Source: Phycisphaerae bacterium (GTDB taxonomy: Bacteria; Planctomycetota; Phycisphaerae; FEN-1346). Taken from it: a stretch of DNA of 63,645 nt. The stretch spans positions 1-63,645 of the forward strand of contig JAWODB010000309.1 in assembly GCA_046483505.1 (NCBI GenBank), given 5' to 3'. Positions 1,366 through 54,033 of the stretch are shown in pieces. Within the stretch, counting starts at the first letter, position 1; every line of letters begins with the position of its first letter. The notes under the pieces were generated by a model that searched no databases, was not told the DNA's origin, and saw only the letters and a list, made by a program, of their open reading frames with translations. Made by a program: the position numbers and the translations under genes.

Positions 1366-1404
1366 GCCGTGCCTCCGAGCGGAAACGTGCGAGTCGAGCA
1401 CGGC

Positions 1405-1433
1405 ACTGTAGCGGGGCGACCCGGCGGGGTCAA
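1405..1433 (-). promoter_or_regulatory. Putative sigma70 promoter for the PHP gene
   Basis: TTGACC-17 nt-TACAGT on the minus strand. Confidence 0.55.
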
Positions 1434-1859
1434 GGCGGGAAAAGCCGGTGACCTCCCTTCGGGCGGGCGAATCACTGAAGGCGTTCCGCCCCCGGTGCCG
1501 ATGAGACAGGTGGCCCACCGCCGGAGAGAGGTCTCCGGCACCCGGTCACCGCCCCCTACGCGCGCCGAAAACCGGCCGACACGGGCCCTCACCGGAGGGC
1601 CGAAAATCGGACGTTTTTCGGCCGCGATGCGGACCGCGCACCCTGCGGACGCAAAACCCTCCCCTGCACGAAACGAGCCGAGGTGTCTGTAACCCGTTGC
1701 CTCATAAGGGTTTACAGTCGGCGTTTCGGCGAGCGGCCTCGCGGCGCGCCCGGCCGGGCCGACTCGTTTGACCGCCGCTCCCCTGCACGTAGGCTAACAA
1801 TACGGGTCATCGTATCCACGCACAGCCCCCGTGGCCCGTAGGTCTGGAAGGATACGCGC

Positions 1860-2972
1860 ATGGCGCATCTGAAGAAGCGAACGCTGTTGCCGATGGGCAT
1901 CCACGTGACGCCCGAGGCTGCCCACGTGGTCCAGTTCGAGCAGGCGGGCGACGAACTCGAACTGGTGTCGGAGGCCTCGTGTTCGTTCACCTCGCCGCAG
2001 GACGCCGTGGCGCGGCTGGTGTCGGCCGAGACGCCTCAGGGCATGGATGCCGACGAGCCGGACTATGCGCCGGCCCTGCGGTTCCTTCGCCAGGAACTGG
2101 GCTGGAACCACTTCAAGGGCAAGGACGCCGTCGTCAGCCTGCCCACCGACCGGGTGGCGGTGCAGCACGTCCGGATGCCGCCGATGCAGCCGGACGAACT
2201 GGCGGCGTCGCTGCCGTACGAACTGGAGGACAAACTGCCGTTCCCGCCGTCCCAGGCGGTGGTGCGGCACATCGTGGCCGGCTCGGTCGCCGAGAACAGC
2301 GAAACCAAGCAGGACGTGCTTGTGTTGGCCGTGCCGCGCCAAGTCGTCCAGTCCCACGTGGCCGCCGTCGCTCGCCTGAAACTGAACGTCGTGGGCGCCG
2401 GCATCGAGCCGTGCAGCATGTGCTACGGGTACGCGTACGCGTCGGAGCACTCCGGCCCGTCGCAGTCCGGCCCGCCGTGCCTGATGATCGTGTACCTGGG
2501 CTGGGAGCGCTCTCACGTGGCCATTCTGCGGGGCCAGGAGACGATGTTCGTCAAGCCGGTGGCCAAGGGGCTGGACCACGTGACGCAGGCCGTGGCGGCC
2601 GTGACCGAGGCGTCGCTGGAAGAGGCCTCGGAACAGGTGGCGGCCTGGCGCGAGGGCGGGACGGCCGAGGCCGTCGACGAGGCCGTCACGACCTACAACC
2701 GCTGCCGGGAGCCGGTCGGCCATCTGACCGACGAGATCCAGTCGTGCATGCGGTACCACGCGTCGCTGGCACGCGGGGCGCAGATCGACCGGCTCGTCTT
2801 CGTGGGCCCCGGCGCCCGGGACAAGGCCCTGGTCCGCGTGCTGAGCGCGAACCTGAGCGTGGCGTGCGAGATCGGCGACCCGATCGGGACGGCCACCGGC
2901 TCGCCGGACCCGGCGAACGCGCGTCCGGAAATGGCCGTTGCGGTCGGGCTCAGTCTCTTCGGGGCGTCCTGA
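1860..2972 (+). CDS. pilM: Type IV pilus assembly protein PilM (actin-like)
   Basis: 370 aa; LPYELEDKLPF, VLVLAVP, EIQSCMRY, FVGPGA, AVAVGLSL patterns; first gene of the pil operon. Confidence 0.85.
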   Translation: MAHLKKRTLLPMGIHVTPEAAHVVQFEQAGDELELVSEASCSFTSPQDAVARLVSAETPQGMDADEPDYAPALRFLRQELGWNHFKGKDAVVSLPTDRVAVQHVRMPPMQPDELAASLPYELEDKLPFPPSQAVVRHIVAGSVAENSETKQDVLVLAVPRQVVQSHVAAVARLKLNVVGAGIEPCSMCYGYAYASEHSGPSQSGPPCLMIVYLGWERSHVAILRGQETMFVKPVAKGLDHVTQAVAAVTEASLEEASEQVAAWREGGTAEAVDEAVTTYNRCREPVGHLTDEIQSCMRYHASLARGAQIDRLVFVGPGARDKALVRVLSANLSVACEIGDPIGTATGSPDPANARPEMAVAVGLSLFGAS

Positions 2973-2990
2973 GGACAAGGGAACGGGCGA

Positions 2991-3749
2991 ATGCTACGGG
3001 TTCTGAACTTCCTGCCGGATGATTACGTGAAGCGGCGCCGCGCCCGGCGCGCGAACCTCATCTGCGCGCTGATCGGTGCCGGCGGCCTGCTGTTTATCGG
3101 GGCCGCGGTCGGCCTGACGGCGATTCGGGCCGTCGGCGTGGCGGCCGCCCGAACCGCGGTCGACCGCCAGTACGAGCAGGCCCGCCTGAAGATCAAGGAC
3201 CTGAAGGAACTCGAGGAACGCAAGAAGGGCCTGCTCCACAAAGCGGAACTGAGCGCCACCCTCCTGGAACGCGTGCCCCGGAGCCATATCCTCGGCCGAC
3301 TGACCAACCTCCTGCCGCCCGACACGAGCCTGACCTCCCTGAGCATGGAACCGCACGAGATGCGCATCGAGACGCCGCAGCCGAAGGCCGAGGAGGCCAA
3401 GGCGAAGAAGGGCAAGGGCAAGAAGAAGGCGGCCCCGCCGGCGCAGACCGAGACGCGGTTCCGATTCCGGCTGGACGGCCTGGCCCAGACGGACGTGCAG
3501 GTAGCCGAGTACATCAGCCGGTTGGCCAACGATGCGCTGTTCGACAGCGTGGACCTCCAGTTCTCGGAGGCGTTTCCGTACGAGGAGGGGATCACGATGC
3601 GGCGGTTCCAGTTGGTGTTCCTGCTGGACAGGAAGGCGGCCACGGTGCTGGAGAAGGCCCCCCTGCCGCCCGGGGCCCCGGCGGATACCGCAGCCGCGAC
3701 CCAGGCCGTCGGCCGGGGGAAGCCGGCTGCGAACGAGGAGGCGTCATGA
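2991..3749 (+). CDS. pilN: PilN-domain fimbrial assembly protein
   Basis: N-terminal LNFLP motif, single TM, coiled coil; follows pilM. Confidence 0.85.
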   Translation: MLRVLNFLPDDYVKRRRARRANLICALIGAGGLLFIGAAVGLTAIRAVGVAAARTAVDRQYEQARLKIKDLKELEERKKGLLHKAELSATLLERVPRSHILGRLTNLLPPDTSLTSLSMEPHEMRIETPQPKAEEAKAKKGKGKKKAAPPAQTETRFRFRLDGLAQTDVQVAEYISRLANDALFDSVDLQFSEAFPYEEGITMRRFQLVFLLDRKAATVLEKAPLPPGAPADTAAATQAVGRGKPAANEEAS

Positions 3750-4273
3750 CGGGTCCGCTTCGCATTCTGCTGACGGCGGTGGCCCTGGCCGTCGTGGCCG
3801 GCATGGCCGCTGCCTTTATCCTCTGGCCGCTCCTGGAGCAGACGGCCGCCGACAGGGAGGCCATCCGGGCACGGCAGGCCGAACTGGTCAAGGTGCAGCG
3901 CGTCGTGCGCCGCATCCGCGACCTGAAGAAGGAGATCAAACGGCTGGAGGAGGCGCTGGCGTTCTTCGAGGACCGGTTGCCGGAAAAGCGCGAGATCGAC
4001 GTCATCCTGCGGGAAGTGTGGCTGATTGCCGACTCCAAGTCGCTCTCCCCCCGCCGCATCCAGACGGGCCGGTCGGAGAACGGGTCCCGCTACAACACGC
4101 AGCCGATCACCATGACCCTCGAAGGCCGGTTCGGCCAGTTCTACGAGTTCCTGCTGGGCCTGGAGCGGCTGCCGCGCATCACCAAGGTCCGGCAGATGCA
4201 GATCACGAAATCGCCCACGCAGGAAGGCGTGGTTGAAGTCGACGTCCTCATGGACATCTACTGCGAGAAATAG
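3746..4273 (+). CDS. pilO: Type IV pilus assembly protein PilO
   Basis: N-terminal TM, coiled coil, RLPEKREI, LEGRFGQFYEFL..LERLPRI; ATGA overlap with pilN. Confidence 0.85.
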   Translation: MTGPLRILLTAVALAVVAGMAAAFILWPLLEQTAADREAIRARQAELVKVQRVVRRIRDLKKEIKRLEEALAFFEDRLPEKREIDVILREVWLIADSKSLSPRRIQTGRSENGSRYNTQPITMTLEGRFGQFYEFLLGLERLPRITKVRQMQITKSPTQEGVVEVDVLMDIYCEK

Positions 4274-4275
4274 CC

Positions 4276-4995
4276 ATGGCGAGCAACGACGCCCCACGCA
4301 CAAACGACGTCCGCCTCTCGAAGAAGGGGCTGGAGACCCCGTCGCAGAAGGGCAAGGTCCAGGGAGGCTTCGGCGACACGAAGAAGGTCCTGATACTCGG
4401 CGCCCTGGGCCTGGTGGCCCTGGCGGTCGTGGCGTACCAGTTCCTCGGGGGCAGCGGCCCCGCGCCCGCCGAGGCCAGCCCGACCAAACCGGAGGCCCCG
4501 TCGGTGGCGCCGGCGGCGGCCGCGGCCGTCCCCGATGCCGGACCGGCCGACGTCAGTGCCGCCTTGGACCGCATCGGCAAGGGAGGCGAAGACGGCCTCT
4601 CGGTCGAACGGGTCGAAAACATGGTCAGCAAGTTCGACACGTACGTGCAGGAACGGCAGATTCCTCTGGCCAGTCTCGAGGTCAACCCCTTCCAGGTCGT
4701 CCGGGGCGGTGGAATCGAAGCCCAGGAGGACAAGAAGGCCCGGCAGCAGGCCAACGCCGAGGCGGAGGCCGAAGCCCGCCGGCAACGCATCCTCCAGGCG
4801 GCCGCCGAACTCAAACTCAGTACCGTCCTCATCGCCGGCTCGACCCGCACCGCCGTCATCGAAGGCCGGCTCTACCACGTGGGCGACGTGGTCGAAGGCA
4901 TGCGGGTGGCCAAGATCGAGCGCGACAACGTGACGCTGGCCTACGAGGATCAGACCGTTGACCTCCGGCTGAGGCCGGAGTGGCACGTGCCGTAA
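4276..4995 (+). CDS. Bitopic membrane protein in the PilP/GspC position
   Basis: Single TM, Pro/Ala linker, NPF motif, C-terminal AVIEGRLYHVGDVVEGMRVAKIERDNVTL beta-domain of PilP/GspC-HR type. Confidence 0.6.
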   Translation: MASNDAPRTNDVRLSKKGLETPSQKGKVQGGFGDTKKVLILGALGLVALAVVAYQFLGGSGPAPAEASPTKPEAPSVAPAAAAAVPDAGPADVSAALDRIGKGGEDGLSVERVENMVSKFDTYVQERQIPLASLEVNPFQVVRGGGIEAQEDKKARQQANAEAEAEARRQRILQAAAELKLSTVLIAGSTRTAVIEGRLYHVGDVVEGMRVAKIERDNVTLAYEDQTVDLRLRPEWHVP

Positions 4996-13521: not shown

Positions 13522-13632
13522 AATGACCAATGCCCAAACCCCAATGACCAAGAACGCTTCGCGTCGAGGATAACCGAACGGCGCACAGGCCGCAGGCCTC
13601 TTTGGTCATTGGGACTTGGTTATTGGGCATTG
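13522..13632. repeat. Heptamer-based inverted repeat element (family C); possible bidirectional terminator
   Basis: AATGACCAATGCCCAAACCCCAATGACCAA ... TTGGTCATTGGGACTTGGTTATTGGGCATT between convergent genes; left arm nearly identical to the reverse complement of 23296-23342. Confidence 0.8.
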
Positions 13633-15265: not shown

Positions 15266-15370
15266 GTCGGCCCTTTCGGATTCGCAGGGGTCCAAATGGA
15301 AACGCTTCCCCCCTTGCCGTCGGCGACGGCTCGATTCGCGTCGGTCAGGGTGACGAGGGTGCGGCGAGGG

Positions 15371-15895
15371 TCAGGTCGGCTTCTTCTTGGTCGGGGCCAG
15401 GATGAGGATCATGCGCCGTCCCTCGCGCGAGGGGCCGCGCTCCACCGTGGCCACGTCGCCCAGGGACTCGACGAACGCCTGCATGTTCTGGGCGGCGAAG
15501 TCCAGGTGGGTCATCTCCCGGCCGCGGAACAGCATGTTGACCATGACCTTGTCGCCGTCTTCGAGGAACTCCCGTGCCCGCCGGATCTTGAACTCCAGGT
15601 CGTGCTTCTCGGTCTTGGGCCGGACCCGGATTTCCTTCTGCTTGACCTCGTGGCTCTTGGCCCGGCTCTTGTGGCTCTTCTTGGCCTGGTCGTACTTGTA
15701 CTTGCCGTAGTCCATGATCCGGCACACCGGCGGCCGAACGTGCGGCGCCACTTCCACGAGGTCGAGGCCGGCCTCCTGGGCAATCTGGAGCGCCTCGTCA
15801 CGTTCCAGGATGCCCATCTGTTCGCCGTCGGTCCCGATCACCCGCAGCGGCGAGATCTTGATCTGATCGTTGACCCGCTGCCTCTGATCCTTCAA
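15371..15895 (-). CDS. infC: Translation initiation factor IF-3
   Basis: TTG start after AAGGAGGAG; LDLVEVAP, PPVCRIMDYGKYKY, FRGREM. Confidence 0.97.
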   Translation of the reverse strand: MKDQRQRVNDQIKISPLRVIGTDGEQMGILERDEALQIAQEAGLDLVEVAPHVRPPVCRIMDYGKYKYDQAKKSHKSRAKSHEVKQKEIRVRPKTEKHDLEFKIRRAREFLEDGDKVMVNMLFRGREMTHLDFAAQNMQAFVESLGDVATVERGPSREGRRMILILAPTKKKPT

Positions 15896-15928
15896 GCGCT
15901 CCTCCTTATTACGGGTAGCCTGATATTG

Positions 15929-15954
15929 CGCGGCGGGTCTCCGTACCCGCCGCG
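15929..15954. repeat. REP-like hairpin (family B)
   Basis: CGCGGCGGGTCTCCGTACCCGCCGCG; many copies in the window. Confidence 0.85.
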
Positions 15955-15971
15955 GTCCGGTTTGATTCTGC

Positions 15972-16118
15972 TGTCATTCTGAGCAGGCCGTGAGGCCGAC
16001 GAAGCCTGCCCCGAGCGAGGCGAAGCCGAGGCGAACGGGAATCTCGCCCTGGTCTTTGCCTTCTCTTTTGTCGCACGGCGAGATTCTTCGGCCCCGCAAG
16101 CGGGGCCTCAGAATGACA
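15972..16118. repeat. Palindromic element family A with a nested 35-bp insert
   Basis: TGTCATTCTGAG...GACGAAG[16005-16039]AATCTC...GAGATTCTTC...CTCAGAATGACA. Confidence 0.85.
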
Positions 16119-16153
16119 TCATGAGCCACCCGCCAACGCGCCGATACAACCCG

Positions 16154-18148
16154 CTACGCCTCCTCCGGCGCCGGCCGGAGCCGCTTCTCCGCGATCTCCG
16201 TCTTGGCCCGGTCGATGAACGCTTCGAGGCCGTCGGCCCCCAGGTCGCCGCGGGCCTTGTCGCGGACGCTGACGGTGCCGGCCCCCTCCTCCTTCTCGCC
16301 GACGATCAGCATGTACGGGATCTTGCGGAGCGTGGCCCGGCGGATCTTGGCCCCGACCTTCTCGCTGCCGTCGTCCAGTTCGGCCCGCAGGCCCGCTTCC
16401 TTCAAGGCATCGAGCACCGTCTCGCCGTAGGCGTTGAACTTATCGCTCACGGGCAGGACGGCGGCCTGGACGGGCGCCAGCCACAGGGGGAAGTCGCCCC
16501 CGTAATGCTCGATCAGGATACCCAGGAACCGCTCGATGCTCCCCAGGATGGCCCGGTGAATCATCGCCGGCCGGTGCTCGGTGTTGTCCCGGCCCACGTA
16601 GGTCAGGTCGAACCGTTCGGGCATGGCCAGGTCGACCTGGATCGTCCCGCACTGCCACGACCGGCCGAGGCAGTCGCGGATGTGGTAATCGATCTTCGGG
16701 GCGTAGAACGCCCCCTCCCCCTCGTTGACCGTGTAGTCCATGCCGCACGTCTCCAGCGCCCCGCGGAGGGCCCCGGTGGCGTGCTCCCACATCTCGTCCG
16801 TGCCGATGGAATGTTCCGGGCGGGTCGAGAGTTCCACCCGCACCTGGTCGAAGCCGAACGTCCGGTAGATCTCGTCCACCAGCCGGATGACGCCCACGAC
16901 CTCGTCTTCCAACTGCTCCGGCAGGCAGTAGATGTGGGCGTCGTCCTGCGTGAACTGGCGCACCCGCAGCAGCCCGTGCAGCACGCCGCTCTTCTCGTGC
17001 CGGTGCACCAGGCCCAGTTCCGCCACTCGCATCGGGAATTCGCGATACGAATGCTTCGTGTTCCGGTAGACGAGCAGCCCGCCGGGGCAGTTCATCGGCT
17101 TGACGGCGAACGCCTCGTCGTCGATTTCCGTGAAGTACATCGCCTCGCGGTAATTATCCCAGTGCCCGCTCCGGTGCCACAAGGCCTCGCTCAAAATGGT
17201 GGGCGTGCGGATTTCCTGGTACCCGGCCTCGGCGTGCAGCCGGCGCCAGTATGCCAGGATCTCGTTCAGCACGCGCATGCCGGCGTGATGCATGAACGCA
17301 AAGCCCGGCCCCTCCTCGTGAAAACTGAACAGGTCCAGGTCCTTGCCGATACGGCGATGGTCGCGTTTGGCGGCCTCCTGGCGGCGGGCGAGGTAGTTCT
17401 TCAGGTCCTTCTCCGAGAAGAACGCCGTCCCGTAAATCCGCTGGAGCATCGGGCGGGTCTCGTCGCCCCGCCAGTAACTGCCCGCCACGCTCAGCAGTTT
17501 GAACGCGGGGATGCGGCCGGTGTCGGGAATATGCGGCCCGCGGCACAGATCCGTGAACCCCCCCGTGTGGTACAGCGTGACGGTGCCGTCCGGCGCGGGC
17601 TTGGCCTCGGCGCGGTCGACCTGCTCGCCCTCGACGGGACCGGCGGCGGCCATGTCGCGGAGGAGTTCCACCTTGTACGTCTGGCCCTCGGCCTCCATCC
17701 GGACGCGGGCGTCCCGGAGCGTCACCGCTTCCCGCTCGAACGGGGCCGCCTCGGCGATGATCTCGGCCATTTCCTCTTCGATGCGGGGCAGGTCGTCCTC
17801 GGCCAGGCCGCCGGGCACCTCGAAATCGTAATAGAACCCGTCCTCGATGGCCGGGCCGATGCCGAAGCGCACGCCGTCCCCGAAGAGGCGGCGCACCGCC
17901 GCCGCCATGACATGAGCCGTGGAGTGGCGCAGAATCGAGAGGGCTTCGTCGCTTTTGTCGGTCAGGATCTCCACCTCCGGCGTCCCGTCATCGGGCACCG
18001 GGGCCGACAGATCCACCGACTTGCCGTTCAGCCTGGCAGCGACGGCGGCTTTAGCCAGGCCTGAACCGATGCGTTTGGCAACGTCCGCGACGCATGCCCC
18101 ATCGGCCACTTCCAGCGTATCGCCATCAGGAAGTCGGACCGTAGGCAT
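16154..18148 (-). CDS. thrS: Threonine--tRNA ligase
   Basis: TGS domain, LRHSTAH, DLCRGPH, KRDHRRIG, KPMNCP, RVRQFTQDDAH, IHRAILGSIERF; start taken at MPTVRLPDG. Confidence 0.98.
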   Translation of the reverse strand: MPTVRLPDGDTLEVADGACVADVAKRIGSGLAKAAVAARLNGKSVDLSAPVPDDGTPEVEILTDKSDEALSILRHSTAHVMAAAVRRLFGDGVRFGIGPAIEDGFYYDFEVPGGLAEDDLPRIEEEMAEIIAEAAPFEREAVTLRDARVRMEAEGQTYKVELLRDMAAAGPVEGEQVDRAEAKPAPDGTVTLYHTGGFTDLCRGPHIPDTGRIPAFKLLSVAGSYWRGDETRPMLQRIYGTAFFSEKDLKNYLARRQEAAKRDHRRIGKDLDLFSFHEEGPGFAFMHHAGMRVLNEILAYWRRLHAEAGYQEIRTPTILSEALWHRSGHWDNYREAMYFTEIDDEAFAVKPMNCPGGLLVYRNTKHSYREFPMRVAELGLVHRHEKSGVLHGLLRVRQFTQDDAHIYCLPEQLEDEVVGVIRLVDEIYRTFGFDQVRVELSTRPEHSIGTDEMWEHATGALRGALETCGMDYTVNEGEGAFYAPKIDYHIRDCLGRSWQCGTIQVDLAMPERFDLTYVGRDNTEHRPAMIHRAILGSIERFLGILIEHYGGDFPLWLAPVQAAVLPVSDKFNAYGETVLDALKEAGLRAELDDGSEKVGAKIRRATLRKIPYMLIVGEKEEGAGTVSVRDKARGDLGADGLEAFIDRAKTEIAEKRLRPAPEEA

Positions 18149-18232
18149 CGTCTTGTGCGTCCGGCCGGGGGTGCCCCGCTCCGGACGGGTGTCCTCCATG
18201 CTGATCGTGGATTCACCGATGAATGCGGACAA

Positions 18233-18261
18233 AGCATACGGCCGGCGGGGCCGCCTGTCAA
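18233..18261 (-). promoter_or_regulatory. Putative sigma70 promoter of thrS
   Basis: TTGACA-17 nt-TATGCT on the minus strand. Confidence 0.7.
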
Positions 18262-18288
18262 GCGCTTTCGGGCCTCACCGGCCTCCGG

Positions 18289-18714
18289 TCAATCGCGGTG
18301 GGCGGGCGGCGAGACCTGAGTGGCGGCGTCACGGGTCAACTCGGCCACCTCGTACCCGCGTTCTCGCCACACCCGACGGTCACGGTCGAGGCGGGTCTTC
18401 AGTGCCGCGATATCCTTCTCCAGGGCGTTGAGACGCTCCTGGGTCTTGCGCACCTGGTCGCCTCGGTGCAGGCCGTGCGGCGGGGCGAGGTCGCCCGCCT
18501 CGTTGTGCGTCCAGCCCTCCTCCAGGAGTCCGGCCTTCAGGCGGCTGAGGTCGGCCTGCTTGGCGGCCAGTTCCTGCTGGGCCTCGGCGTGGTCCTTCCT
18601 GATCTCGCTCTTCGTCCGGCTGTCGCCTTTCATGGCCCGGACGTTGCACCCCGCGGCAAGGCACGCGGCGGCTGGCACCAGGACGCAAAGCGCCGTCATC
18701 CATCTCGTAGGCAT
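18289..18714 (-). CDS. Hypothetical coiled-coil lipoprotein
   Basis: GAGAGGAG RBS; lipobox LAAG|C; two heptad helices. Confidence 0.7.
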   Translation of the reverse strand: MPTRWMTALCVLVPAAACLAAGCNVRAMKGDSRTKSEIRKDHAEAQQELAAKQADLSRLKAGLLEEGWTHNEAGDLAPPHGLHRGDQVRKTQERLNALEKDIAALKTRLDRDRRVWRERGYEVAELTRDAATQVSPPAHRD

Positions 18715-18765
18715 CGCGGTGGCTCCTCTCGGCATTCGTGTCACGCGCGCGGCAACGGCCGGCGG

Positions 18766-19824
18766 CTACCGGCGGAAGTCCGGGCACCCCGGGCGGCAGG
18801 GACCCCGCCCCGGTCCCCGGATGATCGTCGGCGGGCGGACCACGTGGACCCGGATCACGCGGATGTGCGAGGTCACGTCCATCGGCCCGCCCGTGGTCGG
18901 CGTGGCACCGACCGACTCGCCCGGTAACCGGACCGGCTGCTCCGTCCGGTCGTTGCACGTCTGGTTGACCCAGTTGACGTGATTCGCCCAGTCCTGCCCC
19001 AGTTCGTCGAAGGCCGGGTCCACGGCGTACGTGTTCACGTAGTTTCCGGCAGCGCTGCCGGCCACAGCGCCGGTGAGGATGATGATCCAGCCGACCGGTC
19101 CCGACCCGACGCCTGCGACGGTGACGATGAGGGCCCCGCCTGCGCCACCCAGCGCGCCGGTGCCCATCCCGACGCCGGTCTTGACGGTCGCGCGGCCTCC
19201 CTCGATCACGATCAGGCCGGGGTCGGCGTTGGGGTGGGTGGCCTCGCCCAGGAACTCGGCGGCCGGTCCGACGGCGGCCATCCAGGGAGCCCACTTCTCG
19301 CCGGCCTCCTCGCCGAGCACGTGGATGAGCCCCTGCTTGACGCCTTCGCCGGCCGGGCCGCCGCTCGGGCTGACGGCGCCGTCGACGAGCGGCTGCAGGT
19401 ACTCAGGGACTTTGATGGTGCCCCCCTCGGGCGCGGGGCCGGGCGGGGACCTGTCGGACAGGCCGGACGTGGTCGGTGTCCGCCCCACGCTGGAGACGTC
19501 GATGCCGTTGATCTCGCCGGGCGGATCCGCCCTGGGGCTCTCTGTCACCGGTTGCAGGGGGCCGCGCGGGTCGGGGGCGTTCCCGGAAGGCGGCGGCCCC
19601 AATCCCAACTCGCCGACCGTGTTCGCGGTGTACGCGTCCGCCGGGCCGCTGTAGTCGTCCGGCGACACGAGGGTCGGCGACGGTGGCACGCTCGTTACCC
19701 CGGGGCCGGCAAGGGCGGGGGCCGCCGGCCCGCCGACTACCAGAAGCCCCGCGGCCATCGCCAGCACGCCGACCCACGGGACCACCGCCAGGGGCCGCCG
19801 ACTGCTTTTGTATGTGGTTTGCAT
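18766..19824 (-). CDS. Hypothetical secreted protein with Pro-rich N-half and glycine-zipper-like hydrophobic segment
   Basis: AAAGGAGA RBS; signal-like N-terminus ending APALA; GVGMGTGALGGAGGALIVTVAGVGSGPVGWIIILTGAVAGSAAG. Confidence 0.7.
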   Translation of the reverse strand: MQTTYKSSRRPLAVVPWVGVLAMAAGLLVVGGPAAPALAGPGVTSVPPSPTLVSPDDYSGPADAYTANTVGELGLGPPPSGNAPDPRGPLQPVTESPRADPPGEINGIDVSSVGRTPTTSGLSDRSPPGPAPEGGTIKVPEYLQPLVDGAVSPSGGPAGEGVKQGLIHVLGEEAGEKWAPWMAAVGPAAEFLGEATHPNADPGLIVIEGGRATVKTGVGMGTGALGGAGGALIVTVAGVGSGPVGWIIILTGAVAGSAAGNYVNTYAVDPAFDELGQDWANHVNWVNQTCNDRTEQPVRLPGESVGATPTTGGPMDVTSHIRVIRVHVVRPPTIIRGPGRGPCRPGCPDFRR

Positions 19825-19916
19825 CGGTCTGTCTCCTTTCGCTGCTGCGGCGCAGGGCGCGATGCCTATGCCCGCGCCCCTGGCCGTCCACCAGAAGACG
19901 GGCGCGGCCGCGCCGA

Positions 19917-21116
19917 CTACGGCTTGCGGCGTGCGGCCGCCTGGGCGGGCTCGCCGGCGTCCTGTTTCTTGCGGACCCGGGCGTACGCCCGGCAATTGAC
20001 ATAATCGATGCGCCTCAGCGACCACGTGTCTTCCTGGTCGCCGGGGACGAAACTGAAGCACAGGAAAGCGTTCTGCTGGTCCCAACGCGTGGTGAACGCG
20101 AAGGCGGCCTTCTCGTCCGGCCCCACCGCGTACGAGACGAGGGCCTGGTTCTTCCAGTCGGCGGGGTCCACCTCGCGGATGGCGCCGGCCGCCGGCGCGG
20201 GGGTGTCCTCGGCCCGGGCCAGGACCCGCTCCGCCCGGCCGGCCACCAGGTCGTCGAACACCGCGTTCACCGCCTCCATCAGGAACTTGCGTCTGGTGGT
20301 GTTCTTCAGAATGTCCAGCGCCAGCAGGTTCAGGCGGAGCCGGGCCCCGGCGCAGACGCGGTTGCCGGTCTGCGCCTTGCCGCCGGCCAGGCCGGGCGCA
20401 TGGGATCGCCAGTCGGCCAGGCGCTCAAGCATCGCCTCGACCTCGGTGTTGCTCATCGTCTCGACCTTCTCTCTTGGAGGGGGCCGGAGCCCGGCGAACA
20501 AGCGGCCGAAGCCTTCCGTCGTTTCGTAGGTCGTCTCGGCGACGGCGGCGGCGGCCAGGGCCTCCCGCGCGCGCCAGCCGGCGGCCGGGCTGTACGGGGG
20601 CCGGTGCCGCCCGCGAAGGTAGTCGCCCGTCAGGACCTCGGCGTCGCCGACACGGAGACCTTCGTCCGTCTCGTCCCACCGCAGGATGGCCGCCGTGTCC
20701 GTGTACGGGTTGTAGAAGAGGACCAGCGCGCTCTTCGGCCCCGGGTAATGGACCATGTAGATGGACGTGTCGAAGAAGTACCGCCAGGCCCGCCGGAAAA
20801 CCGCCGGCGGCACCCGGCCGTCCGGATACGACGGCCCGTACGCCGCGTCCAGGACCTCGTGAAAGACCGTCGCCGCCTCCGGCGCCATGCGGTCCGGGAT
20901 GGCCTGTTCGGGGTCGGCGTGGATGCACGTGCGGAAGTGCTCGACGTCGGCCACCAGGAACTTCGGCTGGAGCGTCCAGGTGGCGTACGAACCGGCCTGC
21001 TGACACCCGGCGGCACCGGCGGCCAGGGCGGCCAGGACCAGCACCACGCCCAGGCGCCACGCCGCCGGCCCCGTCCCCGGCTCATCCGCCCGCCAGGCCG
21101 TCCCTCGGTACCTCAT
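19917..21116 (-). CDS. Hypothetical lipoprotein (399 aa)
   Basis: GGAGA RBS; hydrophobic stretch ending AAG|C; globular, aromatic-rich body; no family recognised. Confidence 0.7.
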   Translation of the reverse strand: MRYRGTAWRADEPGTGPAAWRLGVVLVLAALAAGAAGCQQAGSYATWTLQPKFLVADVEHFRTCIHADPEQAIPDRMAPEAATVFHEVLDAAYGPSYPDGRVPPAVFRRAWRYFFDTSIYMVHYPGPKSALVLFYNPYTDTAAILRWDETDEGLRVGDAEVLTGDYLRGRHRPPYSPAAGWRAREALAAAAVAETTYETTEGFGRLFAGLRPPPREKVETMSNTEVEAMLERLADWRSHAPGLAGGKAQTGNRVCAGARLRLNLLALDILKNTTRRKFLMEAVNAVFDDLVAGRAERVLARAEDTPAPAAGAIREVDPADWKNQALVSYAVGPDEKAAFAFTTRWDQQNAFLCFSFVPGDQEDTWSLRRIDYVNCRAYARVRKKQDAGEPAQAAARRKP

Positions 21117-21289
21117 CAGGCGTCTCCTCAGGAATGCGGGTACCCTGCCGCCGCGGCACGTTTTGTACCGGTTGCATTGTACGGCGCGGACGTGGGATGT
21201 GCCGCCCTCATTGCACGAAAACGGCCGGCCGCCCCGTCGCCCCGACGGATCGACAGGCCGTTGAACGATGTCGCGTCACCGAATGGACC

Positions 21290-21775
21290 CTAGTGGCTGT
21301 GGCCGGTGCACGGGGGCTTGCCGCCCGTCGGCACGCTTACGCTGCCCGCAGCACCAGCACCTCGCCGGCTGACGTCCGATCCAGTACTGCTCCTGCTGCT
21401 CTCGGCCTCCTGGGCGTCTGCCAGTTCCTCTCGCAGGTCCGAAAGCGAGGCCATGTAGCGGTTATGCTGCCCGATCAGCGTCTGCTTCTCCGCCTGCAAG
21501 TCGGTAGACGTTATGGCAAGGGGTCCCCTTCCTCCGTAGCCCCTCGAAAACTGGCCCGTCGAGGCGTCGTACTCGCTGCCGTGGACCTCCGCCAGTTGCT
21601 TCCGGATCTCCGCGGCGCGCTTCTCGGCGCTGGCGATATCGGCTTGGATATCGCTCGTCTTGCGCTGGTTGCAGGCCATGTGGGAGAAGGCAGCCAGGGT
21701 CACCGCCAAAGCCAGAACCACCAGCGGCAGATGTGCCAACCTGCGGCGCAGACCTCGCACGGCCCGATCGTTCAT
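21290..21775 (-). CDS. Hypothetical coiled-coil (lipo)protein
   Basis: GAAGGAGAG RBS; basic n-region, h-region, HMA|C; two heptad helices and a Ser/Gly tail. Confidence 0.65.
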   Translation of the reverse strand: MNDRAVRGLRRRLAHLPLVVLALAVTLAAFSHMACNQRKTSDIQADIASAEKRAAEIRKQLAEVHGSEYDASTGQFSRGYGGRGPLAITSTDLQAEKQTLIGQHNRYMASLSDLREELADAQEAESSRSSTGSDVSRRGAGAAGSVSVPTGGKPPCTGHSH

Positions 21776-21864
21776 GACACGCTCTCCTTCCCTAACCCCT
21801 CATGACGTGCATGTCACCAACCTGCGGGCAACCAGGGGTCTCCGGCCGCGATGAACGCCTGCCG

Positions 21865-22869
21865 TCAGAAGGAGAACGAAAGCCCCAGGTTCACCGCGTG
21901 GTTCTCGTACGACTCGTTGCCCACGTCGGCGGTGTACTGGGCGTACAGTTCGAGGTTCTTCGTCAGGTAGTAGCGCACCTTGCCGCCCAGGGTGAACCAG
22001 CAGTGGTCCGGATCCTCGAGGGGGGCGATGTTGGTGTACTCTTCCTGAAGCACGCGGTTCCAGTCGAAGATGCCCGTCACGATGCACTGGTCGGACATGG
22101 CGTAATCGGCCCGGTTCATCAGGACCAGGGTGCCGTCGCTGGAATCGTCGCTGGCGATGTTCCGGTTGTAGTTGAACTGCTGCCACCGCCACACCATCGT
22201 CAGGGTCGAGTAGGCCGTCAGCGGTCCCTGCTGGAAGGCGGCCACGCCCACGTACGGCGCCAGGACGAAGGTGTTGGCGTCGACGACGGTCCGCCGCCCC
22301 GCGCCCCCCGCCCGCGTCCGGATGTTCGTGTCGCTGAACGTGAACGAGGAGCCGAAGTACAACAGGTCCACGTTCTTCGACAGGAAGAACGTGAACGAGT
22401 TGGTGTCCATGTCGTTGTCGACCTGGCCCGGCCCGACGCCCGTGCCGTAGGTGTAATCGTACATCAGGCCGACGATGATGTCGTCGATGGAGCGGAACGT
22501 CATGCCCACGGTGCCGCCGTTCAGGTCCGTATCGAGCCCGCCGGTCCGGCGGTCGCGGTTGCTGCCGTAATGGTACTCGAAGAACGGGATGGGGTCGTTG
22601 AACCATCCGCCGGGCGCATCGGCGGGCGGCGGGGGGGCGTCCGCTTCCATGGCGGCCGCCTGCATATTGGCCAGGCCGTCCATCCGGTAATTCAGCGCCA
22701 GAATCGGCGCCAGCGTGGCCTGACGGAGTCCGACGCCGGCCGGGTTCCCGGCCCCGAACAACTGCTGCATGACGTTGTTCTCACGCCGGACCGTCGCCGA
22801 GGCGTCCGCCGCCATCGTCCCCACCACGACGGCCAGAACCAACGTGCCCACCAGTGTGCGTGCCTTCAT
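21865..22869 (-). CDS. Outer-membrane beta-barrel protein, autotransporter-beta-domain-like
   Basis: AAGGAG RBS; signal peptide ending ASA; alternating aromatic strands; C-terminal NLGLSFSF (BAM-type signal). Confidence 0.7.
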   Translation of the reverse strand: MKARTLVGTLVLAVVVGTMAADASATVRRENNVMQQLFGAGNPAGVGLRQATLAPILALNYRMDGLANMQAAAMEADAPPPPADAPGGWFNDPIPFFEYHYGSNRDRRTGGLDTDLNGGTVGMTFRSIDDIIVGLMYDYTYGTGVGPGQVDNDMDTNSFTFFLSKNVDLLYFGSSFTFSDTNIRTRAGGAGRRTVVDANTFVLAPYVGVAAFQQGPLTAYSTLTMVWRWQQFNYNRNIASDDSSDGTLVLMNRADYAMSDQCIVTGIFDWNRVLQEEYTNIAPLEDPDHCWFTLGGKVRYYLTKNLELYAQYTADVGNESYENHAVNLGLSFSF

Positions 22870-23116
22870 GGGACACTCCTTCCGCGTAGAGACCCGTGCC
22901 GGGTCAGTTCGCTGGACGAGGTTACTAGAACCCCTCCCGTGTGCTCATGCAACAAAAATCTGGCGCGACTTTGTATCTTAAAAGAACCTTCGCCCTCGCA
23001 CGCCGCTCGCCCGGTTTATCGGCGTTCACGATGCCCCGCGGCCACTGATTCCCAGCAAGGGCCTCTGACGCGATCCGCTCGCGACATCGCCAACGCGCCG
23101 GACAAGTCCGGCGGCC

Positions 23117-23286
23117 ACTGATCCCGGCAAAAGTAATGTCCGGGGTTGTCATTCTGAGGAGCGGCGAAGCCGCGACGAAGAATCTCGCCTTGTCACCTTT
23201 CGCACGGCGAGGTTTTTCGGCTCCGCAAGCGGAGCCTCAGAATGACAGCCTGGCCCGATGAGGACATTACTTTTCCTGGGCTCAGT
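23117..23286. mobile_element. MITE-like element with ~25-bp imperfect terminal inverted repeats enclosing a family A palindrome (23147-23247)
   Basis: ACTGATCCCGGCAAAAGTAATGTCC (23117-23141) vs GGACATTACTTTTCCTGGGCTCAGT (23262-23286). Confidence 0.65.
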
Positions 23287-23295
23287 AAAGGTTAC

Positions 23296-23342
23296 CCTTA
23301 CGCGCAGCGTTCTTGGTCATTGGGACTTGGGCATTGGTCATT
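23296..23342. repeat. Family C heptamer repeat arm
   Basis: TTGGTCATTGGGACTTGGGCATTGGTCATT; overlaps the stop codon of the IMPase-family gene. Confidence 0.75.
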
Positions 23343-24132
23343 CGCGGCTCGCCACCAGCGGCGCGAGCCGCGCGACCGTTTCGGCGTGCCCGCTGATCAT
23401 CGGCCGCACCACGTCCTCCCCCGCCATGTACGCCATGAGGTCCACGTCCGTGCCGTCGAAATACCGGGTCACGCCGCCGGCGGCGGCGACCATGGCCATG
23501 CCCGAGGCGATGTCCCACACGTGCACGTCGCCCAGGACGACGGCGTCGGCGCAGCCGGCCGCCACGTACGCCAGGTGCCCGACGGTCGTGCCGACGCTCC
23601 GCACCTTCCCGGGAAAGGAGGGATCCAGCGCGAACCGCTTGTGGAACCCGGAATCGACGAAGATGGCCGACTCGCGATGGAACGGCTGCGGCCGGCGCAG
23701 GCCGGCCGGTTCGAGGGGGGCCTGCGGGTCCGACGCCGCCCGCATCCCGGCGTCCGGGCCGGCCTCGAACACCTCGCCCGTCACGGGCAGATGGAACCAG
23801 CCGGCCACGGCCCGGCCGTCGTCGACGAGGCCGACCGAGACGCCCCATCCCGGCAGGCCGGACGCGTACGAGGCCGTGCCGTCGATCGGGTCCAGCACCC
23901 ACAGCCGCCGGGCGGACGGGGCCTCGCGGCCGACGTCCTGCTCCTCGGCCACGAAGCCGTCGTCGGGGTAGCGCCGGCCGAGTTCCTCGATGAGGGTGGT
24001 CTGGACGGCCAGGTCGGCGTCGGTGACGAACGAGCGGTCGGCCTTGCGATGGACGGCGGCCTCGCCGCGCATCCGGAGGGCCATGTCGCCGGCCGCCAGG
24101 ACGAGGGTGCGTACGGCTTCCATCTCGGACAT
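23338..24132 (-). CDS. Inositol monophosphatase family protein
   Basis: FVTDAD, AEE, WVLDPIDGT, WDIASG motifs. Confidence 0.9.
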   Translation of the reverse strand: MSEMEAVRTLVLAAGDMALRMRGEAAVHRKADRSFVTDADLAVQTTLIEELGRRYPDDGFVAEEQDVGREAPSARRLWVLDPIDGTASYASGLPGWGVSVGLVDDGRAVAGWFHLPVTGEVFEAGPDAGMRAASDPQAPLEPAGLRRPQPFHRESAIFVDSGFHKRFALDPSFPGKVRSVGTTVGHLAYVAAGCADAVVLGDVHVWDIASGMAMVAAAGGVTRYFDGTDVDLMAYMAGEDVVRPMISGHAETVARLAPLVASRE

Positions 24133-24189
24133 GGGGACGTCCGCCCTTTCCGGCCCGTCCGCGGCATCGTGCCGCGGGAGGAGCCTCAC

Positions 24190-24218
24190 ACCTTACCGCC
24201 TCGCGGGGCCGGTGTCCA
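24190..24218 (-). promoter_or_regulatory. Putative sigma70 promoter of the IMPase-family gene
   Basis: TGGACA-17 nt-TAAGGT on the minus strand. Confidence 0.45.
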
Positions 24219-24612
24219 GTGGCATACGGGGCCTGTTCCATGCCGGAGCGCGCTTTTAGTTCATATGGACGGCCGTTGATGATGGTTCAAAAACGCGAAA
24301 AAACGGGGGCATTTCCGGCGCGTTTTCGCGCGTTTCCGAAAAAAGCGGTACAAAAGTCGCGCGTTTCGCCTTACCCATTTTAACATTCGACCCCCAAATC
24401 GTCCCTGGCGCGTCAGAATCGACGATCCGGGTTCCGAAAACAGCCATTTTCGGGATCCCGGCGAAATCGCGTTTTCCTAGAATATCGATGAAGGCTCCGC
24501 CCGGGCAACCATTGAGCCGGCGACGGTACGTCGCCGCGGGCATGCGACGCGGTTCAGGGGCCGAAACAACCGGGCGACCTGCAGCCGCCGGCTCCACCTC
24601 GCGTACCGCCCC

Positions 24613-31368: not shown

Positions 31369-31390
31369 ATTGCCGGCCGGCCCAACCGGA

Positions 31391-31510
31391 TGTCATTCTG
31401 AGGAGGCCGTAAGGCCGACGAAGAATCTCGCCGCGGTCGTCGCCGTTTTGCCGCTGGCACGGCGAGACCCTTGGCCCGCCTTCGGCGGATGAACTTCGCT
31501 CAGGGTGACA
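31391..31510. repeat. Family A palindrome with a nested CCCGCCTTCGGCGGATGAAC unit
   Basis: TGTCATTCTGAGGAGGCC...GACGAAGAATCTC...GAGACCCTT[insert]TCGCTCAGGGTGACA. Confidence 0.8.
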
Positions 31511-53747: not shown

Positions 53748-53813
53748 CGAATGATAAATGCCAAAGTTCGGGCCTTCGGCCCGAGAGGGTAGCCGGCCCC
53801 CCGGCGGCCGATT

Positions 53814-54033
53814 TGTCATTCTGAGGAGCCCGTAGGGCGACGAAGAATCTCGCCGTGGCCGTGTCGGTGCTGTGGCGCTTTGCCGTTGTCGTCCATCGGT
53901 CTTCTCCTTATGCCGTCTTTGCGGCTTGGCGCCCCACCTCCGGCGGGTAAACTTTGCGTGAGGCCTGTCGTTGCCGTTTTGCCGTCCGCACGGCGAGATG
54001 CTTCGGCCCTGCAAGCGCGGCCTCAGCATGACA
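53814..54033. repeat. Family A palindrome expanded by a nested family H element (53912-53964)
   Basis: TGTCATTCTGAGGAGCCC...GACGAAGAATCTC...[GCCGTCTTTGCG...CTTTGCGTGAGGC]...GAGATGCTTC...CTCAGCATGACA. Confidence 0.85.

Follow-up and report, generated by a model that had tools for sequence, protein, structure and literature searches.

Type Va autotransporters such as NalP, EspP, EstA, Hbp, BrkA and AIDA-I end in a 12-strand C-terminal barrel with a pore helix and a terminal aromatic motif. Among the small lipoproteins of the envelope, Lpp is a helical protein, a short trimeric coiled coil joined to peptidoglycan through its C-terminal Lys, while outer-membrane lipoproteins of the SlyB type are glycine-zipper proteins. 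A full-text literature search for natural passenger-less autotransporters found nothing relevant.

The Pseudomonas functional-amyloid system Fap has FapF as its outer-membrane channel. FapF has been described as a barrel of 12 strands, blocked by a helix and strikingly similar to type Va autotransporters; it secretes its operon partners, which its periplasmic coiled coil is proposed to recruit (PMC5557850). For its partner FapC a conserved CxxC motif has been reported (PMC6173800). SadA, a trimeric autotransporter, is a type Vc adhesin with a large passenger. The lipoprotein SadB is encoded with SadA and aids its surface display (PMC3953254). Glycine-zipper segments occur in the contact-dependent bacteriocins CdzC and CdzD of Caulobacter (86 and 84 aa). 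These leave the cell through the type I system CdzAB, are accompanied by the small inner-membrane immunity protein CdzI and are patchily distributed among close relatives (PMC5380434).

In this study, we analyse a cluster of five genes, g1 to g5, in a stretch of 63,645 nucleotides (the window). The source organism is an uncultured sediment bacterium. The five genes form an unannotated envelope cluster without a known family and with a passenger-less barrel.

Five exported proteins encoded in a row

The five open reading frames are co-oriented on the minus strand, and each has an ATG, an export signal and a strong GGAG-type Shine-Dalgarno sequence (GGAAGGAG, GGGAAGGAGAG, TGAGGAGA, AAAGGAGA and GAGAGGAG for g1 to g5, respectively). 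The features of the locus are as follows.

21865-22869, minus strand: g1, 334 aa, C-terminal end LSFSF
21290-21775, minus strand: g2, 161 aa
19917-21116, minus strand: g3, 399 aa
18766-19824, minus strand: g4, 352 aa from its ATG; the longest open reading frame, with a TTG start, reaches 20085
18289-18714, minus strand: g5, 141 aa; start moved from GTG at 18744 to ATG at 18714
18238-18254, minus strand: terminator-like GC-rich hairpin with T-run, 35 nt past the g5 stop (from a consensus scan, which is not evidence of function)
18261-18233: sigma-70-like site TTGACA-17-TATGCT in front of thrS, overlapping the hairpin (likewise a consensus match and not evidence of function)
18166-23290: presence/absence block of 5.1 kb comprising g1 to g5, the region upstream of them and a single copy of a dispersed palindromic repeat
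23117-23290: the dispersed palindromic repeat, within the block
16154-18148/18232: thrS, flanking the block
23338-24189: inositol-monophosphatase gene, flanking the block

The Shine-Dalgarno sequence GAGAGGAG lies ahead of the ATG at 18714 rather than the GTG at 18744, and the g5 start was placed accordingly. No additional gene preceded by a Shine-Dalgarno sequence is present in region 18166-23290, and by Pfam and NCBIfam profiles the cluster encodes neither an enzyme nor an ATPase nor any other source of energy. Neighbouring genes encode an inositol monophosphatase, a LysE translocator and a methyltransferase. The cluster is neither a chance arrangement nor an assembly artefact, since metagenome contig L023 carries the same five genes in identical order, contig L024 carries the first four in order and then ends, and contigs from a run of a second study match 17900-22547 with 0-1 differing letters per piece (eight pieces among the matches listed) and span the g4/g3 and g2/g1 junctions.

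Much of the original prediction is read directly in the sequence: five co-oriented genes with good ribosome-binding sites and export signals, a barrel ending in FSF with only a short N-terminal segment (residues 27-43 before the helix), a 399-aa lipoprotein (g3) and a protein with a Pro-rich N-terminal half and a Gly/hydrophobic segment (g4). It had also named g2 and g5 as coiled-coil lipoproteins. Their export signals and invariant Cys bear this out, with an atypical lipobox in g2, while the coiled coil is a matter of sequence pattern and of weak, sub-threshold matches to coiled-coil families.

A type Va beta-domain without passenger

The g1 product is homologous to the beta-domains of type Va autotransporters. 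Its parts are:

residues 1-26: signal peptide (MKAR, hydrophobic core, then ASA/T)
residues 27-43: conserved peptide with a GAGNPA motif
residues 44-65: predicted pore helix
residues 66-88: Ala/Pro linker
residues 91-332: 12-strand barrel, followed by the C-terminal FSF

The AF2 model (pLDDT 74.3, pTM 0.70) has strands over residues 91-332. Each of its best 11 Foldseek matches is an autotransporter beta-domain (E 1e-11 to 1e-8). VIA-align gives Z 22-30 for type Va structures in general, with Z 24-26 for EspP, EstA, AIDA-I and Hbp and Z 29.9 for NalP (1uyn; rmsd 1.9 A, 259/279 residues aligned). Since the aligned range, model residues 38-334 against 790-1084 of the NalP chain, starts at residue 38, helix 44-65 would overlie the NalP pore helix; it is modelled with moderate confidence (pLDDT 53-76) and its sequence is poorly conserved among family members. 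At the sequence level g1 scores 19.1 bits against TIGR01414 (cutoff 16) and 18.6 against PF03797, below the gathering score of 26, and the latter profile matches 10 of 11 g1 family members at E<=0.01 (best 4e-6).

Fold and family profile are thus those of a type Va autotransporter, but the passenger is absent: only residues 27-43 (~17) lie between the ASA/T cut and the helix, and the 11 family members in the alignment all have lengths of 324-364 aa. Further differences from type Va proteins are the long Ala/Pro linker between helix and strand 1 and the separately encoded small lipoproteins that always accompany the barrel. No paralogue of g1 is found elsewhere in the genome. FapF also matches the g1 fold (Z 19.8), more weakly than the autotransporters do. 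Its trimerising coiled coil is fused to the barrel, whereas g1 has no long N-terminal coiled coil of this type and the helical parts are separate lipoproteins. Partners of the FapA-E kind (amyloid subunits, C39-like protease) have no Pfam or NCBIfam match in g2-g5 at E<=1.

A private lipoprotein family with a His/Cys tail

The g5 product is a 141-aa helical lipoprotein with the lipobox CLAAGC/N, whose Cys23 is invariant in 6/6 aligned sequences, and it ends in YEVAELTRDAATQVSPPAHRD. The g2 product is a small exported, two-helix, coiled-coil-like protein that ends in SDVSRRGAGAAGSVSVPTGGKPPCTGHSH. The Cys of its signal FSHMAC is likewise invariant (6/6), but the residue at -3 is H, Q or C, none of them canonical for a lipobox, which makes the assignment of g2 as a lipoprotein less sure. 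Mature g2 and g5 comprise 110-130 residues. Profile comparison identifies g2 and g5 as paralogues (hhalign probability 97.1%, E 5e-11, 122 columns). A genome-wide search with the g2 profile gives g5 (E 3.5e-4) as the sole other match at E<=0.1, the next frame scoring E 0.17, and the genome holds no further paralogue of the two beyond the cluster. Iterated profiles unite 18 of 25 small proteins from barrel loci (12 seeds and 6 recruited at E 5e-5 to 3e-9), with a genome background never better than E 0.03. The other seven, namely all those of G004 and G012 and two of G020, have no detectable homology to the rest. G004 and G012 are the most distant barrel-positive genomes.

Like Lpp, g2 and g5 are small and helical; they differ from it in being two-helix proteins that end in His, Asp or Pro instead of Lys (GHSH in g2, AHRD in g5). 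From SadB they differ as a private family present in 1-4 copies, beside a barrel that is monomeric, type Va-like and free of a passenger, where SadA is trimeric.

Towards their C-terminus the lipoproteins have a short amphipathic stretch that is conserved, then a spacer rich in Pro and Thr, and finally a His/Cys tail, which typically reads P-x-H-x-[H/D/P]. His or Cys occurs in the last 8 residues of 23/25 small proteins, compared with 20.9% of 4,759 background frames, and at least two such residues occur in 17/25 compared with 2.8%, an enrichment that is not an independent test as the 25 proteins are kin. A single one lacks the tail entirely. In a pair of paralogues at one locus (L043) overall identity is 35%, yet 17 of the 19 last residues are identical, which amounts to concerted evolution of the tail. 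A Pro-rich spacer and a terminal His/Cys tail are also found in g4, which ends in CRPGCPDFRR in 6/6 sequences; of the 12,457 frames of the genome no other carries this ending, and one G012 lipoprotein ends in GCPGPRR.

Such tails could coordinate Zn, Ni or Cu within the periplasm or on the cell surface, so that the cluster would capture or buffer metal with the barrel as a small channel. The strong enrichment (PHHH, HIH, CTGHSH, GCGCSN, CRPGC) would suit this function, as would the presence of channels among the other 12-strand barrels that match the g1 fold (COG4313, Z 21.4; KdgM/NanC, Z 17.5-18.7). Each tail, however, has only 1-3 His or Cys, the nearest relatives of g1 in both sequence and fold are autotransporters and not channels, and by Pfam and NCBIfam profiles the cluster contains neither a known metal-binding domain nor a metal regulator or a transporter. 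We consider a metal module very unlikely.

An accessory block with a conserved barrel-lipoprotein core

The gene after the barrel encodes a small helical protein with signal peptide and Cys in 11/11 lineages with downstream sequence, a count that leaves out two further loci ending at the barrel. This adjacency holds down to 43% barrel identity, and the small lipoproteins come in 1-4 tandem copies directly after the barrel. Matches to the g2/g5 profiles are confined to the barrel locus (3/6 barrel-positive and 0/16 barrel-negative family genomes). The barrel is present in 5/21 other genomes of the family. A single-protein query found it in 0/39 genomes from other families of the class, and a profile (E<=1e-5) in 0/300 genomes across the phylum.

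Within the genus the whole block is dispensable. By DNA alignment, congeneric G002 covers 15288-18165 and 23291-24219 of the window and has only 393 bp separating the two segments; in G003 the match stops at 18165 and resumes at 23295, with 909 bp separating the two parts. Compared with both congeners the block is a clean 5.1-kb indel, and the barrel and lipoprotein profiles have no match in G001-G003.

Five unrelated envelope genes might be neighbours by chance, in keeping with accessory content that varies by lineage and with the separability of g3-g4 from the rest (see below). Against this stand the strict adjacency of barrel and lipoprotein, the tail common to lipoproteins and g4, and the gain or loss of the whole block as a single unit. 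Chance neighbourhood is a most improbable explanation, and for the barrel-lipoprotein core it is largely refuted by the synteny counts.

The small helical lipoproteins, with their variable tandem copy number beside a barrel, would also fit a structural scaffold or tether without export, in which periplasmic helical lipoproteins, acting like Lpp or like other coiled coils anchored in the outer membrane, and the barrel as membrane partner stiffen or space the envelope. The Ala/Pro linker between helix and strand 1, in this reading periplasmic and variable across the g1 family (25-45 residues), and the missing energy source agree with such a role. A core tether would not be expected to be as patchy as this module, nor to be absent in congeners; moreover, just 1/25 lipoproteins ends in Lys, and Pfam detects no peptidoglycan-binding domain (OmpA_C, LysM, SLH). 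This explanation appears rather unlikely.

The original prediction had placed the module upstream of thrS. This position is kept in 7/9 lineages where it could be checked, but since thrS has a promoter-like site of its own and a terminator-like hairpin follows g5, the neighbourhood looks like one of position rather than function.

A separable g3-g4 cassette

The g3 product has the lipobox LAAGAAGC/QQ, with Cys38 invariant in 7/7 sequences. It has no Pfam, NCBIfam or PDB sequence match, and its homologues form only 5 clusters among 5.8 billion proteins. The AF2 model is poor overall (mean pLDDT 47.9) and reaches 61-89 over residues 270-370. In a wide VIA-align search with this model, residues ~270-380 matched mostly NTF2-like and related alpha+beta cone folds, in which helices pack against a curved sheet, among the best 50 (Z 5.4-7.2), and the ESM Atlas leads are NTF2-like DUFs, every score below 0.9. 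The model thus predicts an NTF2-like (cystatin-like cone) fold for the C-terminal domain, and another domain of this kind may make up the N-terminal half.

The g4 product is a Sec-exported, Pro-rich glycine-zipper orphan. Its export signal (KSSRR, hydrophobic core, then ALA/G) is followed by a Pro-rich disordered region with one repeat copy (GPLQPV...PGEINGI.VSSVG) and a conserved domain (residues 140-352), which contains a two-segment Gly/Ala-rich hydrophobic hairpin (~215-262), the beta-like HIRVIRVHVV and the terminal CRPGCPDFRR. Relatives are 221-391 aa long and form 4 clusters among 5.8 billion proteins, one being g4 itself; among 1.84 billion, 2 representatives were found at E<=0.001. 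No Pfam family matches at E<=1, glycine-zipper families included, and the sole related match of the NCBIfam type is YiaD_Gzip_OmpA (E 0.82). Unlike SlyB-type proteins, with which it shares the Gly-zipper hairpin, g4 has no lipobox. It is not a detectable relative of FapC.

The two genes are adjacent in the window, in L023, in L024 and on a contig of G015 (C74), and they are a separable two-gene cassette that is not tied to the barrel. The cassette lies inside the cluster, between the two lipoprotein genes, in the window, L023 and L024. L023 and L024, both near relatives, are only 2 of the 11 lineages; the other nine have the barrel-lipoprotein core without g3-g4, five of them with a different ~290-aa lipoprotein in its place and the others with neither. 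In G015 the pair resides on a contig apart from barrel, g2 and g5. Conservation of the gene neighbourhood, set beforehand as a test, hence holds for barrel and small lipoprotein but not for g3-g4, and the notion of five genes co-inherited as one unit had to be given up.

The original prediction had named a toxin-immunity module as one option and had pointed to Cdz as a known glycine-zipper system. In such a module g4 would act as a pore-former of the glycine-zipper type that reaches the outside or the surface with help from the barrel, and g3 would be a lipoprotein immunity factor. The pair is portable, and congeners differ in whether they have the block. Between window and L023, the g4 C-domain has diverged far faster (49% identity) than the barrel (88%) and g3 (73%), and the g4 of the window is no more distant from its counterpart in the remote G015 (55%) than from that of L023, a pattern known from polymorphic toxins. 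The T6SS immunity protein Tai3 is among the fold matches of the g3 C-domain (rank 42, Z 5.5), and ESM Atlas leads for the g4 C-domain are Gly-zipper_Omp (0.88) and colicin-like (0.87), both below the bar of 0.9. However, fast divergence is seen also in g2 (68%) and g5 (55%) and is a property of the whole non-barrel part, g3 identities (73%, 66%, 66%) roughly track organism relatedness and do not follow the g4 pattern, and NTF2-like folds are very common and uninformative on function. No cluster protein matches a toxin, bacteriocin or immunity family at any level, and most lineages have the core without the pair. The likeness to Cdz ends at the hydrophobic glycine-zipper segment and the patchy distribution: g4 is a 352-aa protein with a Sec signal, neither the five genes nor their neighbours encode a type I system (ABC, membrane-fusion protein), and region 18166-23290 has no small transmembrane immunity gene like cdzI, g3 being a 399-aa lipoprotein. 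A toxin-immunity function of the pair finds no positive support and is decidedly unlikely.

Discussion

As a possible rather than a probable reading, we tentatively favour a barrel and partner envelope module for docking or export. The barrel g1 would be the outer-membrane docking or translocation partner of the tail-tagged proteins. These would be exported by Sec, with lipidation of the lipoproteins, after which their C-terminal tags would be recognised at the barrel. The latter may either anchor the tagged proteins at the periplasmic face or thread them to the surface, a form of autotransport 'in trans' that can be likened to the helix-plugged 12-strand FapF exporting proteins of its own operon.

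Several findings support the docking or export module: the passenger-less autotransporter beta-domain fold of g1, its strict association with the lipoproteins (11/11), the single family formed by g2 and g5 together with a tag common to g4, the FapF precedent and the accessory status of the module. It is weakened by the narrow 12-strand pore, which is modelled plugged by g1's own helix and which folded helical lipoproteins could not pass, and because classical autotransport requires a covalent link to the passenger. The helix itself is moderately confident and poorly conserved. The tag might just as well be a metal-binding tail, or a low-complexity end that plays no part in recognition, and 7/25 lipoproteins are not detectably homologous, while 1/25 is tail-less. 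Finally, g3-g4 is not tied to the barrel and the lipobox of g2 is atypical.

The data show anatomy, homologies, synteny and conservation of the tag, whereas partner binding, topology, export and any metal binding by the tails are our inference. Taken as a whole, the cluster is an accessory module of the outer membrane that belongs to one family of uncultured bacteria, probably planctomycetes.

Gene organisation of the cluster

Five co-oriented open reading frames (ORFs) had been predicted at 18289..22869, and all of them are present on the minus strand, each with an ATG and a GGAG-type ribosome-binding site 5-9 nt 5' of it. They are designated g1 to g5 in the direction of transcription:

21865-22869, minus strand: g1, passenger-less barrel, 334 aa
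21290-21775, minus strand: g2, small helical lipoprotein, 161 aa
19917-21116, minus strand: g3, lipoprotein with a putative NTF2-like domain, 399 aa
18766-19824, minus strand: g4, Pro-rich glycine-zipper protein, 352 aa
18289-18714, minus strand: g5, small helical lipoprotein, 141 aa

The position of its ribosome-binding site sets the start of g5 at 18714, not at 18744. Overlapping and opposite-strand ORFs of the region are a common by-product of 64-74% G+C. Signal-peptidase-I type signals are found in g1 (cut between ASA and T) and g4 (between ALA and G), a canonical lipobox with invariant Cys in g3 and g5, and an atypical box with invariant Cys (FSHMAC) in g2. Twin-arginine export of g4, prompted by the motif SRRPLAV, was ruled out as the RR is not conserved among relatives. 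Since the same gene order recurs in related metagenome loci (all five genes in L023, the first four followed by the contig end in L024), and since run contigs from a second study span 17900-22547 (eight pieces among those listed, 0-1 differences) and bridge the g4/g3 and g2/g1 junctions, misassembly does not explain the arrangement.

The g5-thrS interval has a terminator-like hairpin and a sigma-70-like site, both of them consensus matches only; the promoter-like TTGACA-17-TATGCT is at 18261-18233, by the thrS start. The longest thrS ORF begins with TTG at 18232, and the ATG at 18148 is favoured by relatives and by the conserved N-terminus MPTVRLPDG.

g1 is an autotransporter barrel without passenger

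Sequence comparison of g1 with the Pfam Autotransporter family gave a sub-threshold match (E 0.0017, 18.6 bits, gathering score 26), and NCBIfam TIGR01414 (autotransporter barrel) was matched at 19.1, above its cutoff of 16. Within the g1 family, 10 of 11 aligned members match PF03797 at E<=0.01, the best at 4e-6. An AF2 model built on the 11-sequence alignment (pLDDT 74.3, pTM 0.70) shows a helix at 44-65 followed by 12 strands within residues 91-332. In a Foldseek search with this model, ranks 1-11 were all type Va autotransporter beta-domains (E 1e-11 to 1e-8). VIA-align superposed it best on NalP (Z 29.9, rmsd 1.9 A over 259 residues, model 38-334 on chain 790-1084), followed by EspP, EstA, AIDA-I and Hbp at Z 24-26, whereas non-autotransporter 12-strand barrels scored lower (COG4313 channel 21.4, FapF 19.8, KdgM/NanC 17.5-18.7). 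Only ~17 residues, with a conserved GAGNPA motif, separate the signal-peptide cut from the helix. Together with the family and fold matches this identifies g1 as a homologue of autotransporter beta-domains that has no passenger.

The barrel is patchily distributed and followed by a small lipoprotein in all 11 lineages

The barrel is single-copy in the 4.82-Mb assembly, which is 89% complete. Single-protein and profile searches agree that 5 of the 21 other family genomes have it; a single-protein query found it in none of 39 genomes from other families of the class, and the profile at E<=1e-5 in none of 300 taken from across the phylum. A collection of 5.8 billion proteins holds 9 clusters of homologues. 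Ten metagenome loci and one extra genome locus (L043) were added for context. After merging of evident duplicates (L029=L012, L032=L011, L026=L031; L041, L042 and L044 equal genomes G015, G004 and G012), 11 lineages with sequence 3' of the barrel remained, L030 and G017, which end at the barrel, being left out.

Gene neighbourhood of the barrel in related lineages
Small helical lipoprotein (1-4 copies) as next gene after the barrel: 11/11 lineages
thrS after the cluster: 7/9 lineages reaching far enough (exceptions G015, G004)
Family-less ~290-aa lipoprotein closing the cluster: 5/11 lineages
g3-g4 inside the cluster: 2/11 lineages (L023, L024)

Conservation of the neighbourhood thus holds for one part of the predicted module, barrel then lipoprotein, but not for g3-g4, which share the cluster in just two lineages. 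That the five genes are chance neighbours, as the scattered occurrence of g3-g4 might suggest, is highly improbable, barrel and lipoproteins being adjacent in all 11 lineages. Profile matches of g5 and g2 are confined to barrel loci (window genome, G015, G020) and were obtained in none of the 16 barrel-negative genomes of the family; the lipoprotein family is private and strictly linked to the barrel.

The ~290-300-aa lipoprotein that closes the cluster in five related lineages is 48-54% identical between them. It has a conserved ILDAC[HYF]A motif, which recalls the Cys site of caspase-like enzymes, and no Pfam match, and tblastn did not find it in the window's genome. Its positions are:

L009:6107-6985, minus strand: ~290-aa lipoprotein
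L010:6078-6917, minus strand: ~290-aa lipoprotein
L011:8755-9627, plus strand: ~290-aa lipoprotein
L028:10204-11106, plus strand: ~290-aa lipoprotein
L029:3185-4087, plus strand: ~290-aa lipoprotein

The whole block is accessory

In two congeners (G002, G003) ThrRS is 90% identical to that of the window. DNA alignment with them breaks at window positions 18165 and 23291/23295, between which they hold 393 and 909 bp; the 5.1-kb block between the inositol-monophosphatase gene (PF00459) and thrS is therefore a presence/absence polymorphism, and the whole of it is accessory. Identities of barrel and ThrRS fall roughly together (88/89% in L023, 55/79% in L027, 43/72% in G012), and vertical descent with repeated loss would fit these values better than recent transfer. 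Two studies have metagenome runs, from freshwater sediment and from sediment, with near-identical DNA, and the organism is probably a member of the Planctomycetota.

Upstream of the inositol-monophosphatase gene, G002 (L037, G002:C25, ~1200-4300, thrS-forward) appears by eye to have a NikR-type regulator and then CbiM/Q/O-type transporter genes, whose place in the window is taken by genes for a LysE translocator and a methyltransferase; this flank, too, therefore varies between congeners. A palindromic repeat with arms GTCATTCTGAGGAGC...GCCTCAGAATGAC, ~100-195 bp long, is dispersed through the genome; its copies in the window are at 23117-23290, 16019-16118, 13524-13575, 31388-31432 and 53813-54034. 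One copy is directly 5' of the barrel; the copy in the thrS-infC interval is also present in G002 and G003. A 471-bp intergenic query containing the repeat gave 136 BLAST segments over many contigs of the genome, and contig depth in public runs rises 10-20 fold across it.

The small lipoproteins share a terminal tail

Profile-profile comparison relates the g2 and g5 families (97.1% probability, E 5e-11, 122 columns). Searched against the whole genome, the g2 profile had g5 as its sole other match at E<=0.1 (E 3.5e-4), the next-best frame reaching E 0.17. The set of small proteins comprised 25 signal-peptide/Cys proteins downstream of the barrel in 11 lineages. Three rounds of iterated profiles from 12 seeds recruited six further proteins (E 5e-5 to 3e-9; best genome background frame E 0.03 or worse), and seven of the 25 were not joined (lipoproteins of G004 and G012, two of G020). 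All have the same layout: lipobox, helix, conserved loop and second helix, after which come a brief conserved stretch (DVAELTRDAA or SDVSRxGAGAA), a Pro/Thr spacer and the tail at the C-terminus. A periplasmic scaffold or tether built from such helical lipoproteins is a doubtful alternative reading.

The last 8 residues hold His or Cys in 23 of the 25 proteins and at least two such residues in 17, against 20.9% and 2.8%, respectively, of 4,759 high-GC3 frames of this genome, although binomial P values overstate this enrichment as the proteins are kin. In L043 the g5-type and g2-type paralogues (2722-3201 and 3360-3803; common tail VAD.SRDA.TGTTGVPPHMH) are 35% identical over 101 residues but agree at 17 of the final 19 positions. 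The tail is therefore kept alike within a genome, and these sequences suggest either gene conversion or selection acting on it. The terminal CRPGCPDFRR of g4 is invariant in 6 of 6 sequences and resembles the GCPGPRR end of one G012 lipoprotein. The lipoproteins and g4 have a C-terminal tag in common, and it evolves in concert. Metal handling by the tails, which would account for the His and Cys residues, we regard as very unlikely.

A role of the tail as genome-wide sorting signal was rejected: among 12,457 frames of the genome no other ends in the g4 motif, and the terminal His pairs of 36 of them appear unrelated.

g3 and g4 form a separable pair

Clear homologues of both g3 (E 4e-161, 65%) and g4 (E 1e-55, 55% over residues 138-352) were found among 60 relatives only in G015. 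There the two genes are adjacent on contig C74, next to ArsR- and ACR3-like ORFs, while contig C9 carries barrel, g2, g5 and the ~290-aa lipoprotein as one contiguous run; the pair is separable from the barrel cluster.

For g3, 5 homologous clusters and no family (Pfam, NCBIfam) or PDB sequence match were obtained. AF2 modelled it poorly (mean pLDDT 47.9), with residues 270-370 at 61-89. Among the VIA-align matches listed for this C-terminal part, all of middling Z (5.4-7.2), most are NTF2-like folds or related alpha+beta cones. ESM Atlas scores of g3 and g4 are all <0.9 and were taken as leads only; they include NTF2-like DUFs for the N-terminal half of g3, and the clusters nearest g3 are commonest in Planctomycetota.

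The conserved C-domain of g4 holds a two-segment Gly/Ala hydrophobic hairpin. g4 is an orphan with 4 clusters, and a sensitive profile search of 1.84 billion representatives gave 2 proteins at E<=0.001, both of its own narrow family. Sequence searches of solved structures with g5, g4 and g3 profiles yielded nothing better than E 0.57. PADLOC and PHROGs matches were at chance level (LeoBC, E 0.008, on a Gly-rich stretch; head scaffold, E 0.065). In the Pro-rich part of g4, a repeat of ~45 residues (GPLQPV..PGE.NG.NVSSVGPSPVTYD) has a single copy in the window, two copies each in L023, L024 and the related protein P0013, and none in the G015 protein:

19400-19700, minus strand: g4 repeat region (residues ~60-140)
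L023:3743-4903: locus with two repeat copies
L024:4569-5744: locus with two repeat copies

g4 diverges fast and out of step with its neighbour genes.

Pairwise protein identity (g4 C-domain, barrel, g3, g2, g5)
Window vs L023: 49%, 88%, 73%, 68%, 55%
Window vs G015: 55%, 62%, 66%, 38%, 46%
L023 vs G015: 40%, 60%, 62%, 37%, 48%

The original prediction proposed a candidate secretion, surface-display or toxin-immunity module and pointed to Caulobacter CdzC/D. Set against the Cdz features described in PMC5380434, the likeness breaks down in size, in secretion route and in the immunity gene. A toxin-immunity system centred on g3-g4 would suit the hydrophobic hairpin and fast divergence of g4 and leaves the barrel clusters that lack the pair to be explained otherwise; it seems unlikely.

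Discussion

The textbook autotransporter barrel is a pore that serves its own fused passenger only. Each part found here is of a known kind: autotransporter barrel, lipoprotein, putative NTF2-like domain. No description was found of their combination, in which the barrel lacks a passenger, tagged lipoproteins always accompany it and a Gly-zipper cassette is present in some lineages; full-text searches outside subscription journals gave nothing relevant on natural passenger-less autotransporters.

We tentatively suggest that the tagged proteins have the barrel as their partner in the membrane, which may serve their docking or export. A more specific form of this proposal, to which we assign a low probability, is a split, type V-like path operating 'in trans'. 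The minimal barrel, having lost its passenger or never had one, would dock proteins encoded by other genes or export them to the cell surface. The cargo would be the private helical lipoproteins and, where present, the glycine-zipper protein, recognised by their short His/Cys tag at the C-terminus, whose evolution is concerted within each genome. FapF offers a parallel: according to PMC5557850 it is a helix-plugged 12-strand barrel exporting proteins of its own operon, for which a periplasmic coiled coil was proposed as recruiter; FapC has a CxxC motif (PMC6173800). By analogy, g1 might export the products of neighbouring genes.

The toxin reading is displaced as default by a sharper question, whether the C-terminal tag binds the barrel. 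Practical value is modest at present, the lineage being uncultured and narrow, the module dispensable and its function inferred. A natural barrel without passenger that always stands beside tagged lipoproteins would represent a new use of the autotransporter fold, either as an in-trans exporter or display device, as FapF, or as the membrane anchor of a periplasmic scaffold. It would also open one of the few ways into the outer membrane of planctomycete-like bacteria, of which little is known.
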